A stretch of 64,000 nt of DNA, from the NCBI RefSeq assembly GCF_039596355.1, contig NZ_JBCNJW010000012.1, positions 36,072-100,071 of the forward strand, read 5' to 3'. The translations under genes were made by a program, and so were the position numbers. The notes under the pieces were generated by a model, which was not told where the DNA came from, made no database searches, and was given only the letters and a program-made list of their open reading frames with translations. The stretch is from Fluviicola sp. GTDB taxonomy: Bacteria > Bacteroidota > Bacteroidia > Flavobacteriales_D > Crocinitomicaceae. Of this stretch, positions 28,379 to 35,501 are shown piece after piece (the first letter of the stretch is position 1; the number at the start of each line of letters is the position of its first letter).

Positions 28379-29650
28379 TTATTTTGTTGTCAAAGTTTGC
28401 TTGCGATCCGGACCAACCGAAACGGTTGTTACCGGCACTTGCAAATGTTGTTCCAAATAGTTTACGTAATCCTTCAACGCCTCTGGTGCATCGGAATAGG
28501 AAGTCAAACCAGTCAGGTCTTTGTTCCATCCCGGAAGGTCTTCGTAAATCGGTTCAATCGTCATTCCGTCAATGTCATACGGCATGTAATCCTGCTCCAC
28601 TCCGTCTACTTTGTACTTCGTACATGCACGAATGGTTTCGAATGTGTCCAAAACATCTGCTTTCATCATCGCCAATTCGGTTACACCATTGATCATGATA
28701 GCATATTTCATTGCAGGAAGGTCGATCCATCCGCAACGACGTGGTCTTCCGGTTGTTGCACCGAATTCCCGTCCTTCTTTACGGATTTTCTCTCCGATCT
28801 CATCATCCAGTTCTGTTGGGAAAGGTCCTGAACCAACGCGGGTACAGTATGCCTTGAAAATCCCGATCACATCTCCGATTTTAGAAGGTGCGATTCCCAA
28901 TCCGGTGCACGTTCCTGCGGTCACGGTGTTGGAAGAAGTTACGAACGGGTAGGTTCCGAAGTCGATATCCAGCATCGTTCCCTGCGCACCTTCTGCCAAT
29001 ACTTTTTTACCGGCTTTCATTGCTTCGTTCATGTATTGTTCACTGTCAACAGCTGTCAATCCTCTCAGCACTTCAATTCCTTCCATCCATGGGCCTTCCA
29101 GCTCAGACAGATCGAATTCGAATCCTTCGTAATGCTTCAGCAGGTTCAGGTGTTTCTCCACCAATGCCTGGTATTTTTCCTTGAACGAAGGCAACGAAAT
29201 ATCTCCGACACGCAGACCGTTACGGCCTGTTTTGTCCATATATGTAGGCCCGATTCCTTTCAAGGTACTTCCGATCTTGTCTTTTCCTTTGGAAGCTTCA
29301 GATGCCGCATCCAGCAATTTATGCGTCGGAAGAATCAAATGTGCTTTTTTGGAAACGATCAAACGTTGTTTTACGTCAATATTGAACGGAGCCAGTTTCT
29401 CCAATTCTTTCTGGAAAACAACCGGGTCGATCACTACTCCGTTTCCGATCAGGTTAATCACATTTCCGTGGAAAATTCCTGAAGGAATCGTGTGCAAAAC
29501 ATGTTTCACTCCTTCAAACTCCAGCGTATGACCGGCATTCGGCCCGCCCTGAAAACGAGCGATAATATCGTATTGCGGGGTGAGAACATCTACAATTTTT
29601 CCTTTCCCTTCATCTCCCCATTGTAATCCTAAAAGAACATCTACTTTCAT
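28379..29650 (-). CDS. purA: Adenylosuccinate synthetase
   Basis: GLQWGDEGKGK, GGPNAGHT, EFGATTGRPRRCGW. Confidence 0.98.
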   Translation of the reverse strand: MKVDVLLGLQWGDEGKGKIVDVLTPQYDIIARFQGGPNAGHTLEFEGVKHVLHTIPSGIFHGNVINLIGNGVVIDPVVFQKELEKLAPFNIDVKQRLIVSKKAHLILPTHKLLDAASEASKGKDKIGSTLKGIGPTYMDKTGRNGLRVGDISLPSFKEKYQALVEKHLNLLKHYEGFEFDLSELEGPWMEGIEVLRGLTAVDSEQYMNEAMKAGKKVLAEGAQGTMLDIDFGTYPFVTSSNTVTAGTCTGLGIAPSKIGDVIGIFKAYCTRVGSGPFPTELDDEIGEKIRKEGREFGATTGRPRRCGWIDLPAMKYAIMINGVTELAMMKADVLDTFETIRACTKYKVDGVEQDYMPYDIDGMTIEPIYEDLPGWNKDLTGLTSYSDAPEALKDYVNYLEQHLQVPVTTVSVGPDRKQTLTTK

Positions 29651-30000
29651 GTGACTTTGTTAAATTTCGCTTCAACTTCTTCTGTTGAATTGAAGCAGCT
29701 AAAAATTTCGTTTAATTTGGATATTTCGAATAGCTTTTTTACGGACGGCTGTAAATTGACCAATACACAGTCAAGACCTGCTTTCCGTGATCTGGTCAGT
29801 ATGCGTACAAAGAAATTCAAGCCGGTGCTGTTGCAGTATTCCAAGGTGGAACAATCGCACAAAACGGCTTTCAGATTGCCCGACAATACCTGTTCCGTCT
29901 GATTCAGTGCATCTGCCAAACCTTCATCGGAAATGATTCTTCCTGAAATTTTGACCAATACAAAATTCGACGACTTCGTTATGTCAAACTGCGCACTCAT
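29647..30000 (-). CDS. STAS domain protein (anti-sigma factor antagonist)
   Basis: DCSTLEYCNSTGL phospho-acceptor motif, KKLFEISKLNEIF. Confidence 0.85.
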   Translation of the reverse strand: MSAQFDITKSSNFVLVKISGRIISDEGLADALNQTEQVLSGNLKAVLCDCSTLEYCNSTGLNFFVRILTRSRKAGLDCVLVNLQPSVKKLFEISKLNEIFSCFNSTEEVEAKFNKVT

Positions 30001-30455
30001 TATTGATTTTGTTCATCCTCTTCGCTTCTAACTCCATAGAAGTAAAGGGAATGGTGTTGAATTTTAACGCCGAAAATTTCTTCGATCGTTGCTTTGATAC
30101 TTTGAATGCGGGGATCACAGAATTCGATCACTTCACCTGTATCCGTGAGGATAACGTGGTCGTGCTGTTTTGATCCATGAGATTTTTCAAACTGAGCCAG
30201 GTTTTTCCCGAACTGATGCTTACGAACCAGGTTGCAGGCCAACAGCAATTCAATCGTATTGTATAATGTTGCTCTGGAAACACGGTAGTTTTGGTTCTTC
30301 ATTTTGATATACAGGGATTCGATATCAAAGTGTCCTTTGTAGTTATATATTTCAGAGAGTATGGCAAAGCGCTCAGGAGTTTTTCGGTGCCCGTTTTGCT
30401 CCAGATATGCTGAAAATATATTTCTGACCGTTAACTGCAGATCTTGTTGTTGCAT
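30000..30455 (-). CDS. fur: Fur-family transcriptional regulator
   Basis: [26 protein letters not shown]. The TTG at 30476 lies inside a TAnnTTTG promoter (30474-30481), so ATG 30455 is used. Confidence 0.9.
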
Positions 30456-30473
30456 CTGACCATGTTGAAAGGG

Positions 30474-30481
30474 CAAAAGTA
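30474..30481 (-). promoter_or_regulatory. -7 promoter element of fur (TActTTTG)
   Basis: Exact consensus 18 nt upstream of ATG 30455. Confidence 0.6.
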
Positions 30482-30610
30482 GTTATTTTTTTCTGTTTTA
30501 GCATCATGAAGATTCCACATTGTGAGAAGTTTTCAACGTAATAACGGGTTTTCTGCACATTTCTTCCGGGTAAGTACCTGGATGATTCTTCCCCGGAGCA
30601 TCGGTGATCG

Positions 30611-30679
30611 TTTCATTTCCGAATGAAATCTAAATTTTGCAAATTCGTATGATTACGAATCGTGTAAATTGTTTTACAC
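30611..30679. repeat. Three consecutive perfect 7-4-7 inverted repeats
   Basis: TTTCATT-tccg-AATGAAA (30611-30628), ATTCGTA-tgat-TACGAAT (30643-30660), GTGTAAA-ttgt-TTTACAC (30662-30679). Confidence 0.8.
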
Positions 30680-30820
30680 AAATGATAACTATTGTTTCTT
30701 CACTGAAAACTAAAATTCAGGAGTAAAACAGCGGTGAAAAGAAAGAAAAAACTCCCGGCAAAAGGCCATTCAGCAAAAATATCATTTTGCAATTTTACGA
30801 ATTCGCGCAAATCTCACACT

Positions 30821-30876
30821 CTAATCCTCTTTCGTATCGTAACGCTCTACACGTTTCACTCCTTCTACCTGTTCGA
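30821..30876 (-). repeat. Orphan copy of the last 56 bp of relA/spoT (direct repeat, copy A)
   Basis: 55/56 identical to 31925-31980; the single difference is T30848 versus C31952. Confidence 0.97.
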
Positions 30877-31833
30877 CCCCAACCGGAAATAGAGCATGAA
30901 CTGGATATACAAGGGATCGTATTTCGCCAAACCCTGGTCTCCGGATTTCACAATCGTGAACTTATTAGCTGCCGGACGACCATCGAAATTATAATGTGCA
31001 GCATCAAAATCGAAAGAATAGTTGGAATAAGTGTCTGCATCCCTGAAGTTGACCTTCGTCTGGGCCTGGTAACTCACCAGTGCTTTTAAGCCTATAAACT
31101 CGTATTCCCACCGGAAACCGATTCCCAAACCGACATTCAGCGAAGATGCCATTTCCCAATCAGAAACCACCATTTTACTGCAACCGCACGTATCCTGGTA
31201 ATGAACATCCATGTAAGCCCTGTAAACGGTCATCCCCAAATCTGCACGTACAAATCCGTTGAAATGCGCTCCCATTTTCAGGAAATTGTATTCAGCATAG
31301 AGTGACGGTGTATAGGTTCGGGCTTTTAAACCCCACGCAGCAGTTAACGGAGTCGTTTTTGTCTGCTGACTTCCTGGCCCCAGGTAATCTTCCGGCTGAT
31401 AAGTTCTGGAAAAAGCAAAATCCCCTAATTTCTGATAGGCAAATGAAACTCCAAGCCCCCATTTCTGGCTGACTCCCAAGCTTCCTGAAAAATCAAAAAC
31501 ATGAGCAACATGATCATTGAACCAGGACAAATCACGAAACCGCATGGTGTTCACCTGGTTTTGGTTCATTCCTACAATGGCATTGACTCCGTAACCGAAA
31601 CGCAACACACCGTGTTTTTCAGGAGTAAGATTCCCCATGTGATTCGGGTCGAATCTCTCGGAATCCGGAGTTGCATCCTTGTTTTTTTCATCGGAATGAG
31701 AGCTACTGCTACTACTCCTGCCACTCCTTCCTGAGCTGCTTTTCCCACCAGAGCAACTTTGGGCATAGGCTTGGCTAAATCCCAAACAAAACAAGGAAAT
31801 CAATGCAGGGATAACAATTCGCTTCATAAGCAT
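30865..31833 (-). CDS. Putative outer-membrane beta-barrel protein (islet cargo)
   Basis: Signal peptide, Ser/Gly-rich linker, alternating amphipathic strands (WGLGVSFAYQ, LNVGLGIGFRWEY), C-terminal YIQFMLYFRL; its stop codon lies within repeat copy A. Confidence 0.7.
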   Translation of the reverse strand: MLMKRIVIPALISLFCLGFSQAYAQSCSGGKSSSGRSGRSSSSSSHSDEKNKDATPDSERFDPNHMGNLTPEKHGVLRFGYGVNAIVGMNQNQVNTMRFRDLSWFNDHVAHVFDFSGSLGVSQKWGLGVSFAYQKLGDFAFSRTYQPEDYLGPGSQQTKTTPLTAAWGLKARTYTPSLYAEYNFLKMGAHFNGFVRADLGMTVYRAYMDVHYQDTCGCSKMVVSDWEMASSLNVGLGIGFRWEYEFIGLKALVSYQAQTKVNFRDADTYSNYSFDFDAAHYNFDGRPAANKFTIVKSGDQGLAKYDPLYIQFMLYFRLGSNR

Positions 31834-31924
31834 TAGGTTTGAGCTAAATGTAGCAACCCTTTCGAAGTCAAAGTGTTAAACAGACGTTAAAATTCCTTAA
31901 ATCCCGAATACCTGGACAATACAC

Positions 31925-34150
31925 CTAATCCTCTTTCGTATCGTAACGCTCCACACGTTTCACTCCTTCTACCTGTTCGAATTTGCGCATCAGGATATCG
32001 AGGTGCTCCGTATCAAAAACCAATACATGAATCCGTCCTTCAAACAACCCATCATTGGCTTCGAAAGAAATCGATTTCATATTGACATTCAACTCGTTTG
32101 AAATGACTTCTGTGATTTTGTTCACGATTCCCACATCATCGATCCCGATCAGGCGGATTGCAGCAACACGCGCAACCAAATCCTGGCTCCTCCATCGTGC
32201 TTTGATGCAGCGGTAGGCCATCTTAGACTGCAAATGCTCTGCATTCGGGCAGTTGATACGGTGAATCTTGATTCCTTCCGAAATAGTGATAAATCCGAAA
32301 ACAGGATCTCCCGGAATCGGGTTACAGCAACGTGCCATCTGGTATTGGATATTTTTGAAATCCTCCCCGATGATGATGGTGTCTTCTTTTTTATTGATTT
32401 TCGGATAAACATCAAGTTCGTGCTTATCCTTATTCGGAGTCACTTTTTTCTCCAGCTGCAGAAGTCCGTTTACATTATCCAGCTCACGCAGTTTGGATAA
32501 ATCCAGTTTTCCTTTTGCAATGCGGATATACAAATCTGTAGCGGATGAAAATCCGTAAAAACGTTCCAGGGTCGTGATATTCTCTGATTTGAACTGGATG
32601 TGAAGCTGTTTGAATTTGCGCTCCAGGATTTCTTTTCCATCCGCAGCAATTTCTTTCCGCTCTTCGTTTAGTGCCGATTTGATCTTCTGACGCGCTCTCG
32701 CTGTTCCTGCCAGGCGTAACCAGTCTTCCGTCGGTTTTTGTTTCGACGAAGTAATGATCTCTAACTGATCTCCATTCTGAAGCTGGTAACTGAGCGGAAC
32801 CAGGCGGTTATTCACCTTTGCACCGATACATTTGTTCCCGATATCGCTGTGAATGTCGTAGGCAAAGTCCAGGATTGTGGCTCCCACCGGAAGCACACGC
32901 AAATCTCCTTTCGGGGTAAACACATAAATCTCATCATGGAACAGGTTCATTTTAAACTCTTCCACGAAGTCCATTGCGTTCACATCCGGATTTTCCAGCA
33001 AGTCGCGGATTTCTGAAATCCAGCGGTCAAACTTACTGTCGTCCTTCTGATTTTCTTTGTACCTGTAATGTGCCGCCAACCCTTTCTCGGCAATCTCGTC
33101 CATCCGCTTCGTACGGATTTGCACTTCAACCCATTTCCCTTGCGGCGACATCACCGTCGTGTGCAGGGATTCGTAGCCATTTGCACGTGGAGTTGAAATC
33201 CAGTCTCTCAAACGATCCGGACTCGGCTGGTAGAAATCAGTCACAATAGAATACACTCTCCAGCAATCAGCCTTTTCCATTTCGATCGGTGTATCAAGAA
33301 TGATACGAACAGCAAACAAATCAAATACTTCCTCAAAAGGCAGGTCTTTGCTATTCATTTTTCGCCAGATCGAAGAAATGGATTTCGTCCGGGCTTTGAT
33401 CTCGAAATGGTACCCTTCCCGGTTTAGCCCTTCGCGAATCGGGTTGATGAACCGGCGGATAAAGCGGTTACGCACATCTTCCGTCGACTTCAGTTTCAAC
33501 TGGATGTTCCGGTAAATATCCGGCTCAGTGTATTTCATCGCCAGGTCTTCCAGTTCCGTTTTGATGGAATAAAGTCCCAAACGGTGTGCCAGCGGAGCAT
33601 AGAGGAATTTTGTTTCGGAAGCAATTTTGAGCTGTTGTTCCGGACTCATACTGTCCAGCGTACGCATATTATGCAAACGGTCGGCCAGTTTGATGAGCAC
33701 TACACGCAAATCATCTGAGATCGTCAGAATCATCTTACGGAAGTTTTCTGCCTGAACCGATGTATTCTGGTCAAATACATCCGGAATTTTGGTCAAACCA
33801 TCGATGATTCTTCTGGCTTTTTCACCGAAAAGATCTTCAACGTCCTGGAGTGTGATATGCGTATCTTCAACGGTATCATGCAGCAAGGCACAGGCAATGG
33901 ATGTTGCTCCCAATCCCATTTCTTCGGCACATATACGCGCCACGGCAATCGGGTGATAAATATACGGTTCTCCCGACTTTCTGCGCATGTCTTTATGCGC
34001 CTCTACCGCCACATCAAATGCTTTTCTGATGTAGGCCGTATCCTGGCGGGTTCTGTTCTTTGTTGCTCTTAAAAGCCCTTTAAAAGCAGCTAAAATTTCC
34101 AAACGTTCCTTTTCCAGATCTATCTGAGCTTCCATATTTGCAGATTCCAT
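31925..34150 (-). CDS. relA: Bifunctional (p)ppGpp synthetase/hydrolase, RelA/SpoT family
   Basis: HD domain (ALLHDTVED), DLFAVR, NGYESLHTT, EVQIRT, TGS (VFTPKGD) and C-terminal ACT domain; -7 element at 34159-34166. Confidence 0.96.
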   Translation of the reverse strand: MESANMEAQIDLEKERLEILAAFKGLLRATKNRTRQDTAYIRKAFDVAVEAHKDMRRKSGEPYIYHPIAVARICAEEMGLGATSIACALLHDTVEDTHITLQDVEDLFGEKARRIIDGLTKIPDVFDQNTSVQAENFRKMILTISDDLRVVLIKLADRLHNMRTLDSMSPEQQLKIASETKFLYAPLAHRLGLYSIKTELEDLAMKYTEPDIYRNIQLKLKSTEDVRNRFIRRFINPIREGLNREGYHFEIKARTKSISSIWRKMNSKDLPFEEVFDLFAVRIILDTPIEMEKADCWRVYSIVTDFYQPSPDRLRDWISTPRANGYESLHTTVMSPQGKWVEVQIRTKRMDEIAEKGLAAHYRYKENQKDDSKFDRWISEIRDLLENPDVNAMDFVEEFKMNLFHDEIYVFTPKGDLRVLPVGATILDFAYDIHSDIGNKCIGAKVNNRLVPLSYQLQNGDQLEIITSSKQKPTEDWLRLAGTARARQKIKSALNEERKEIAADGKEILERKFKQLHIQFKSENITTLERFYGFSSATDLYIRIAKGKLDLSKLRELDNVNGLLQLEKKVTPNKDKHELDVYPKINKKEDTIIIGEDFKNIQYQMARCCNPIPGDPVFGFITISEGIKIHRINCPNAEHLQSKMAYRCIKARWRSQDLVARVAAIRLIGIDDVGIVNKITEVISNELNVNMKSISFEANDGLFEGRIHVLVFDTEHLDILMRKFEQVEGVKRVERYDTKED

Positions 34151-35066: not shown

Positions 35067-35501
35067 CTAATCTGCCAGTTTGATATAGGCGGTGTATTCT
35101 TCTTTCTCTCCCGTAGAATTGTTGTAATCCGTTGTTTGAATGGTCATCTTATCCTTTTTGGGTTTATCCAGGATTTTGAACACCGACGCTTCACCGTTAA
35201 ACATCATGGTAATCTGGTCTTTCGTATTCGTCCAGGTTCCCGAACTGGTCTCAGGCGAACCGTTTAAAACCAGCGTCATGACCACCGATCCTTTTTTGTC
35301 AAAAACAATATTGCCTGCATTCGGAATATTCGCAGACGACTGCAGCGTGTTGTTGACATAATACTTGTAATCAATCGACGTAACATCCCATTTTCCGTCT
35401 TTTCGTACCAACCAGTGCTCAATGCGCTTTTCTTTCGAGCAGGCGCTTAGCACAACCGTTAAAACAGACAGAAGAAACAGAACTTTTGCAATTTTTCTCA
35501 T
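35067..35501 (-). CDS. Lipocalin-like lipoprotein
   Basis: Lipobox LSAC, GKWDVTS motif; -7 element at 35526-35533 supports start 35501. Confidence 0.75.
   Translation of the reverse strand: MRKIAKVLFLLSVLTVVLSACSKEKRIEHWLVRKDGKWDVTSIDYKYYVNNTLQSSANIPNAGNIVFDKKGSVVMTLVLNGSPETSSGTWTNTKDQITMMFNGEASVFKILDKPKKDKMTIQTTDYNNSTGEKEEYTAYIKLAD

Follow-up and report, generated by a model that had tools for sequence, protein, structure and literature searches.

The region considered here lies between relA and fur in a stretch of 64,000 nucleotides from Fluviicola sp. (contig NZ_JBCNJW010000012.1), which is referred to as the window and in whose numbering all positions are given. The minus strand carries all the local genes, namely purA, a STAS-domain gene, fur, an orphan open reading frame (ORF), a relA/spoT-type gene (relA below) and a SIMPL-family gene. 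The last 56 nt of relA occur twice, as direct repeats at 30821-30876 and 31925-31980 that match at 55/56 positions and lie 1,104 nt apart, start to start. Between the two copies there are a 97-nt spacer (IG1) and a single ORF (30865-31827/31833, minus strand), which codes for 320-322 amino acids (aa) and, after its predicted product, an outer-membrane protein, is called the OMP gene. Strains of this species carry the locus either in a filled form, with both repeat copies and the gene, or in an empty form, which lacks one copy together with IG1 and the gene. The features of the locus, in the direction of transcription, are as follows.

31925..34150, minus strand: relA/spoT-type (RelA/SpoT homolog, RSH) gene, 741 aa, with Pfam HD_4, RelA_SpoT, TGS, ACT_4 and RelA_AH_RIS
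31925..31980, minus strand: repeat copy 1 (R1), the last 53 nt of relA plus its TAG stop, from the repeat comparison
31828..31924, minus strand: IG1, the spacer from relA to the OMP gene, homologous to the same spacer in related species (blastn, collinear with L081 and L082)
31844..31872, minus strand: promoter-like motif in IG1 (TTTG, 16 nt, TAcaTTTAG), conserved in the window, L081, L082, L001 and L083
30865..31827, minus strand: OMP gene, for a 320-aa predicted outer-membrane beta-barrel protein of a genus-specific orphan family (from model, Foldseek, synteny and dN/dS)
30821..30876, minus strand: repeat copy 2 (R2), a non-functional copy of the relA tail, the first 12 nt of which give the last three codons and the stop of OMP
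30865..30876, minus strand: junction microhomology TCGAACAGGTAG, from alignment with the OMP ends of relatives and with the relA tail
30553..30820, minus strand: U, ~268 nt of species-specific, single-copy, non-coding DNA, present in filled and empty alleles and absent from L001 and L081-L084
30813..30820, minus strand: hypervariable octamer directly after R2 or the relA stop, with four versions among strains
30477..30552, minus strand: IG2, the fur upstream region, containing TActTTTG, conserved in all relatives and 91-94% identical to L081, L082 and L001
30000..30476, minus strand: fur, 158 aa, with Pfam FUR
29647-30000, minus strand: STAS-domain gene
28379-29650, minus strand: purA
30821..31924, equivalently 30877-31980: the 1,104-bp unit missing from empty alleles, made up of one repeat copy, IG1 and the OMP gene

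The repeat ends exactly at the stop codon of relA. A pattern search allowing up to 3 mismatches finds only these two sites over the 64-kb window, against an expected number of 0.00 from 100 dinucleotide-preserving shuffles. The single mismatch (31952 C vs 30848 T on the plus strand) is a GTG/GTA difference, silent for Val in the relA frame, while the last 12 nt of the OMP ORF (TCGAACAGGTAG, coding for S-N-R and stop) lie inside copy 2 in a frame that differs from that of relA. An earlier note on this DNA, made from its letters alone, had reported that the last 56 bp of relA recur 1,104 bp downstream with one silent mismatch, and these figures bear it out. It had also described a discrete unit of a promoter-like region and one beta-barrel gene without an integrase. 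This agrees with the single, domain-free ORF found here, and no integrase or recombinase is present in the 1,104-bp unit or within ±8 kb, where the neighbours are housekeeping-type genes. The motif in IG1 matches the -33/-7 promoter consensus of Bacteroidota, and is a predicted promoter. On the other side of the gene, the fur-side limit of U falls somewhere between 30553 and ~30586.

The repeat may in principle be the product of a mis-join, and the same could be said of the empty allele, given that all of the evidence comes from short-read metagenome assemblies and that both alleles appear in one sample (S7). Both copies are, however, rebuilt with their distinct flanks in independent studies and by two assemblers. 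The contig of run X1 is identical to the window, that of X2 spans the whole region with 10 single-nucleotide polymorphisms (SNPs) across 30400-32400, contigs of X3, X4, X5, X6 and X14 span R2 with both flanks, and ENA contig L088, 99.13% identical to the window over 12.5 kb, has both copies. In the window strain the copies have no 31-mer in common (k=31), as their one mismatch lies at the centre. Empty contigs, for their part, reach 116-341x in runs where no OMP sequence of at least 85% identity is found anywhere. An assembly artefact, a concern of the earlier note as well, is thus effectively excluded, its probability being negligible.

The OMP protein has no match in Pfam or NCBIfam. Its family amounts to only five 90% clusters among 5.8 billion proteins, all in one genus. 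An exact-protein lookup of the 322-aa form returned none; gene callers start at an ATG two codons later, which gives the 320-aa form (P0001). The AlphaFold (AF2) model shows 8-10 long antiparallel strands after a signal-like N-terminus, at low confidence (pLDDT 53.5), and its top Foldseek matches are small outer-membrane barrels only (OmpA-TM, Ail, OpcA, OmpX and OmpW, with TM-scores of 0.25-0.35 on the query). Near the C-terminus there is a ...YxQFMLYFRxG motif. With moderate confidence, the orphan is predicted to be an outer-membrane beta-barrel protein. It resembles the small 8-10-stranded barrels (the OmpA N-domain, OmpX/Ail, OmpW, OpcA) in its signal-like N-terminus, modelled long antiparallel strands and C-terminal motif, but differs from them in having no Pfam or NCBIfam match, a distribution of five clusters in one genus and a low-confidence model, and its conserved DTCGC motif and Ser/Gly-rich N-terminal linker are unusual in that company. 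All five members of the family have the DTCGC motif unchanged. The linker, a low-complexity segment after a conserved Q-x-C (window 31680-31750, codons ~27-50), differs in length between species and holds 3 of the 7 SNPs seen within the species in the islet. Two runs from organism F of study P12 (X20 and X25, guessed to be RNA) have contigs on 30916-31075, 31310-31549 and 31853-32003, that is, on parts of the OMP gene and on the place where the relA tail meets IG1. These contigs are a hint of transcription of the gene, the library type being a guess.

The OMP gene in related species

The order relA-IG1-OMP-IG2-fur-STAS-purA is found in five related species (L001, L081, L082, L083 and L084), where OMP and fur are separated by an IG2 of 93-119 nt. 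All OMP homologs found are at the same place, between relA and fur. The closest genome, L001, is a metagenome-assembled genome (MAG) of an uncultured Fluviicola with a RelA that is 96% identical. None of the five has a second copy of the relA tail. Among close pairs of species RelA is 98.4-98.9% identical and OMP 77-87%, and among distant pairs the values are ~95% and 48-61%. Both proteins give the same grouping, namely (window, L081, L082), (L083, L001) and L084. Synonymous divergence (dS) of OMP is 1.16-1.38, compared to 1.05 for relA, and the ratio of non-synonymous to synonymous divergence (dN/dS) of OMP is 0.07-0.15. IG1 can be aligned across the species, with the motif TTTG...TAnnTTTAG conserved, and the GC content of the OMP unit is the same as that of its flanks. 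These comparisons show that the gene has been at the relA-fur spot since before the Fluviicola-like genus diversified. In most other Bacteroidota relA is followed by fur after ~100-200 nt, and it follows that OMP came in at the base of the genus, the repeat appearing only long afterwards.

This history bears directly on the view that the locus is a decayed integrative element or islet, with the 3' end of relA as its attachment (att) site, OMP as its cargo and the integrase lost. Direct repeats that duplicate the 3' end of a gene, together with an existing empty site, are what such an element would leave behind. The cargo, though, is orthologous and syntenic in five repeat-free species and evolves congruently with its flanks, and its GC content is not anomalous. 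No integrase, nor a remnant of one, is seen either inside the 1,104-bp unit or within ±8 kb of it. One gene with its promoter takes up the unit and leaves no space for more, and a duplicated relA tail occurs in 0 of 85 related loci. A decayed, integrase-borne element is effectively excluded and close to refuted. Two suggestions of the earlier note are likewise not supported: that the gene is an incoming islet, which its positional orthologs and the match of its divergence and tree with those of the flanks contradict, and that relA served as an att site, of which the 85 related loci give no sign.

Unrelated genes also occur between relA and fur in distant Bacteroidota, among them a carbamoyltransferase with a GDSL-like protein, a metallophosphoesterase, an OstA-like protein and hypotheticals (L062:4955-9442, L015:8238-9722, L060:2751-4351, L031:8199-9224 and L040:8214-8781). 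These loci contain neither an integrase nor a duplicated relA tail. Lineage-specific genes have thus landed repeatedly in the relA-fur spacer. In other Crocinitomicaceae (L005, L007-L010, L013, L014) fur-STAS-purA lies the other way round with respect to relA, which makes the genes convergent and puts ~1.6 kb between relA and purA; more than one rearrangement has therefore affected the relA-fur neighbourhood in the family.

Filled and empty alleles

Contigs of the same species were recovered through the exact Fur and RelA proteins of the window, and are 99.1-99.6% identical to it. In the empty allele the relA stop is followed by 344 nt and then fur, while in the filled allele this distance is 1,448 nt. 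The two thus differ by exactly 1,104 bp, and the empty allele keeps one 56-mer.

Filled allele: L086 (the window's own contig), L088, and runs X1-X7, X12-X14, X16 and X20
Empty allele: L087 (and five similar contigs), L089, L090, L100, and runs X8, X9-X11 and X15

The joints that skip the 1,104 nt run from 30820 to 31925 in X8 and X15, and from 30848 to 31953 in X9-X11. In the last three runs the empty form stands at 116-341x with zero OMP contigs at 85% identity or more, and at this depth the gene must be truly absent. The empty allele is present in three unrelated studies and the filled one in at least eight, both occurring in sample S7. The earlier note had proposed a comparison with relatives for an empty site; such sites are thus found within the species itself (X8, X9-X11, X15/L100, L087, L089 and L090), and the exact 1,104-bp difference is consistent with its further suggestion that the repeats allow excision or deletion. 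The relA gene is intact in both alleles, with an identical 741-aa protein on 13 contigs, filled and empty, and an identical Fur protein is encoded on 11 contigs with either allele. An OMP allele without the repeat, or without U, was not found in ~25 runs and contigs, including all of the runs that hold OMP words.

The variable site of the repeat is itself polymorphic in functional relA genes, being G in the window, L088, L089, X8 and L100, and A in L087, L090 and L099. The reading of the GTG/GTA difference as a marker of donor and recipient alleles, put forward in the earlier note, is rejected, as the same polymorphism exists in the relA genes of the population. Empty alleles hold either A or G at this site. 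This is the result expected if the crossover fell at different points between one copy with G and another with A, and recombination within the population could give the same pattern.

R2 of L088 differs from that of the window at 3/56 positions (30848, 30832 and 30827). R2 is drifting like neutral DNA, and from these differences the repeat should be about as old as the diversity of the species. Between the window and L088 there are 7 SNPs in the islet and a divergence of 0.87% overall, and U diverges by 1.5-4% among alleles, from which it follows that both classes of allele are likewise about as old as species diversity. In the flanks, 6 SNPs support a split between filled and empty alleles and at least 9 contradict it, indicating a recombining population without a clean filled or empty clade. 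Two variants in U (30579G and 30712G) are common to filled (X4, L088) and empty (L089, X8) alleles. Taken with the conflicting SNPs, this means that the allele states are interspersed on haplotypes, by repeated conversion or by recombination.

Directly after the repeat, the octamer at 30813-30820 has the versions AGTGTGAG (window), AGTGGGAG (empty alleles, X2 and X4), CGGGGGAA (L088) and CAGGGGAA (a minor form in X7). The window and L088 differ there at 4 of 8 nt, compared to ~0.9% genome-wide, and the octamer could be a local mutational hotspot or an old, divergent haplotype patch. Further upstream, a 144-aa hypothetical gene preceding the SIMPL gene (window ~35067-35500) is predicted at only 70 aa in L087:2302-2514, from a biofilm strain with the empty allele, and in L099:1844-2056, a contig with the left junction of the filled allele. 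The shortened gene suggests a second strain-level disruption nearby.

The junction and the DNA upstream of fur

In comparison with L081 and L082, homology extends from relA to the last codons of OMP and resumes ~75 nt upstream of fur. After the OMP stop the window has ~320 nt more than these relatives, made up of R2 and the 268 nt of U. Judged from the alignments, what the species has in addition to its relatives is these ~320 nt after the OMP gene, and not the gene. The relatives' OMP genes end in TCGAATAAGTAG (L082) and TCAAATAAATAG (L081), and relA has TCGAACAGGTAG 44 nt before its stop. Exactly at the upstream edge of the repeat, the 3' end of OMP and the relA tail therefore share a microhomology of 10/12 positions (TCGAAYARGTAG; TCGAA.A.GTAG). 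The length of OMP is kept, the protein ending in ...GSNR vs ...GSNK. The other edge of the repeat is the TAG of relA, and the stop of OMP is also TAG.

U has no similarity elsewhere in the window or in the 85 loci, and no second copy of at least 80% identity in X1 or X2, two runs carrying the genome. An exact 30-mer from it has 0 matches in genome_contigs and metagenome_contigs, two collections from which the window's species is apparently missing. No plasmid or phage matches it, and no Rfam family does (the best is SprX, at E=0.6). A repeated or mobile element is ruled out by the lack of a second copy, of plasmid or phage similarity and of an Rfam family. A degraded second copy of IG1 and OMP, left from a tandem duplication, was also considered; local alignment gives z of at most 3.5 in 16 tests, and a decayed-copy origin is rejected because R2 is still 98% identical to R1, which leaves too little time for decay. 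A 22-codon hydrophobic ORF in U (MIFLLNGLLPGVFSFFSPLFYS; 30717-30785, minus strand) has a 1-nt insertion, and hence a frameshift, in X8 as well as 4 SNPs, and is probably not a gene.

At window 30643-30660 and 30785-30806, just upstream of fur, U contains the palindrome ATTCGTA-ATCA-TACGAAT and two copies of a paired motif, ATTCGTAA...TTGCAAAAT. From their sequence, the palindrome and the paired motifs could be candidate binding sites of a regulator. An inverted repeat of 8-9 nt, GCGCAAAT(T)/(A)ATTTGCGC, brackets the 56-mer of the empty allele, its relA side at ~31981-31989 and its U side at ~30804-30812. No literature on this locus was found.

Origin of the repeat and of the empty allele

At this locus a resident gene is present in some strains and absent from others; it is not an inserted or mobile island. 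The explanation we consider somewhat more probable than all others together is that a microhomology-mediated rearrangement created the repeat, by template switching, and that recombination between its copies then deletes the resident gene. U would have been inserted after the OMP stop. A template switch would have copied the last 44-56 nt of relA, entering at TCGAA..GTAG and leaving at TAG, so that the relA-tail copy and the ~268 nt of U came to lie directly after the OMP stop, joined on the microhomology TCGAAYARGTAG. Both genes have TAG as their stop in this species, and the copy runs up to it, so that the OMP frame and stop were kept. The two 56-bp repeats would afterwards undergo homologous recombination, or replication would slip from one to the other, and one repeat, the spacer and OMP would be lost, leaving relA-R-U-fur. 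As for the repeat, microhomology-mediated template switching or illegitimate recombination is the likeliest origin: the anatomy of the junction is plain from the alignments, and the mechanism is deduced from it. The illegitimate recombination that the earlier note had listed among its options fits the microhomology. Both alleles are documented directly, while we infer the direction from filled to empty. The deletion has probably happened more than once. Phage pressure, for example, might favour loss of a surface protein, with purifying selection keeping the gene elsewhere, although this is speculative.

Three reasons favour the sequence of template switch and deletion, or at the least deletion as the chief process still going on. 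Every step in it is intrachromosomal. The interspersed haplotypes are easier to account for by three independent deletions than by three insertions that are all identical, and loss of the DNA between 56-bp repeats at a distance of 1.1 kb is a frequent and well-known event. Several points weigh on the other side. The observations on the two alleles are equally compatible with an older empty allele, so that the direction is not proven. A precursor with OMP followed by U, and no relA-tail copy, is not found in any run, and none of the searches for the source of U (window, 85 loci, contig collections, plasmids, phages and Rfam) recovered it. That the repeat ends exactly at the relA stop is explained only by the 3-nt TAG microhomology. 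Ordinary homologous recombination can also share polymorphisms among haplotypes (9 sites conflict and 6 support). Ongoing deletion, a circle or a tandem junction are not observable in the assembled Logan contigs, since these drop rare variants, and the putative beta-barrel assignment depends on a low-confidence model.

The main competing history, which we regard as rather unlikely but worth serious weight, places the empty allele first. IG1 and OMP would have been replaced by U in an ancestor (relA-U-fur), and OMP would have been re-captured later, when one illegitimate crossover at TCGAAYARGTAG joined an OMP-bearing allele (on the left, up to the OMP stop) to an empty allele (on the right, from the relA tail onward). 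Homology-facilitated illegitimate recombination (HFIR) anchored in fur, unequal crossover, or Campbell integration of a 1,104-bp circle are the conceivable routes, and the event would make the duplicated relA tail in a single step. The filled allele is indeed exactly a chimera of the genus-type arrangement on the left and the empty allele on the right, and in filled alleles of the window type R2 and its junction are identical to the relA tail and junction of L087. This history explains better why the copy stops exactly at the relA stop and continues into U. The empty alleles are diverse, U being 2-3% divergent among L087, L089 and X8, and hence not recent. Microhomology at the join is typical of illegitimate recombination. 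Such a history requires, however, a repeat-free OMP allele from the window's own lineage or one very near to it, given that the relA tail matches at 55/56 positions, compared with only 52/55 for L081, and none is present in the ~25 runs and contigs. It also needs DNA exchange between cells in addition to a rare illegitimate event. The filled alleles do not form a clean clade, and their diversity equals that of the species (the islet SNPs and overall divergence between the window and L088 given above), the interspersed haplotypes would need several insertions or extra recombination, and integration of a non-replicating 1.1-kb circle through ~50 bp of homology is improbable.

A reversible, integrase-free cassette is very unlikely. 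Here the 1,104-bp unit would be excised as a circle via the 56-bp repeats and re-integrated by host recombination at the relA tail, which could take place in the same cell or in strains without OMP. If true, it would amount to a heritable, population-level on/off switch for a surface protein, and would explain the interspersed alleles.

Known systems place the template switch and deletion in context. With deletion polymorphisms at short direct repeats the locus shares 56-bp repeats 1.1 kb apart, a short allele that keeps one repeat, the absence of a dedicated recombinase, and hybrid repeat states (A or G) in different short alleles. In E. coli, Lovett and colleagues reportedly described such events between repeats that are tens of bp long and ~1 kb apart, arising by RecA-dependent recombination or by replication slippage. 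The difference is that the repeat is here a recent copy of the tail of a neighbouring essential gene, placed by an illegitimate event, and that the direction of change is a reconstruction. HFIR, known from naturally transformable bacteria, and template switching of the FoSTeS/MMBIR type (fork stalling and template switching/microhomology-mediated break-induced replication) offer a second comparison. In common with these, the locus has a junction on a short microhomology (10/12), added DNA, and in fur a long homology that could have anchored one side. The parents of the junction are, on the left, the genus-type relA-IG1-OMP and, for the tail, the species' own relA, while U has no source in the searches made. 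In contrast to HFIR and template switching, no donor or recipient is identified, natural transformation is not documented for the lineage, and the OMP reading frame and stop are preserved exactly. Islands in gene 3' ends, where duplication of att restores the target, are similar in the duplicated housekeeping 3' end and in the empty sites of other strains, but here there is no integrase, the gene is ancestral, the unit is a single gene, and relatives have the gene without the repeat. The locus fails two defining tests of an island, a recombinase and foreign cargo.

A duplicated housekeeping 3' end with an empty site is the textbook signature of an integrated element, and at this locus it surrounds an ancestral gene. 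Pipelines that search for islands, and readers, would call an insertion, whereas comparison with sister species shows an ancestral surface-protein gene, probably made precisely deletable by a microhomology-mediated rearrangement. No new mechanism is revealed; the locus behaves like a direct-repeat deletion polymorphism with a repeat that illegitimate recombination would have made. Its main value is as a warning: around a gene that is ancestral, an att-like duplication with empty sites can arise all the same. The locus also illustrates cleanly, from nature, how strains of an environmental Bacteroidota species come to differ in having or lacking a surface-protein gene, with both alleles well documented in public data.

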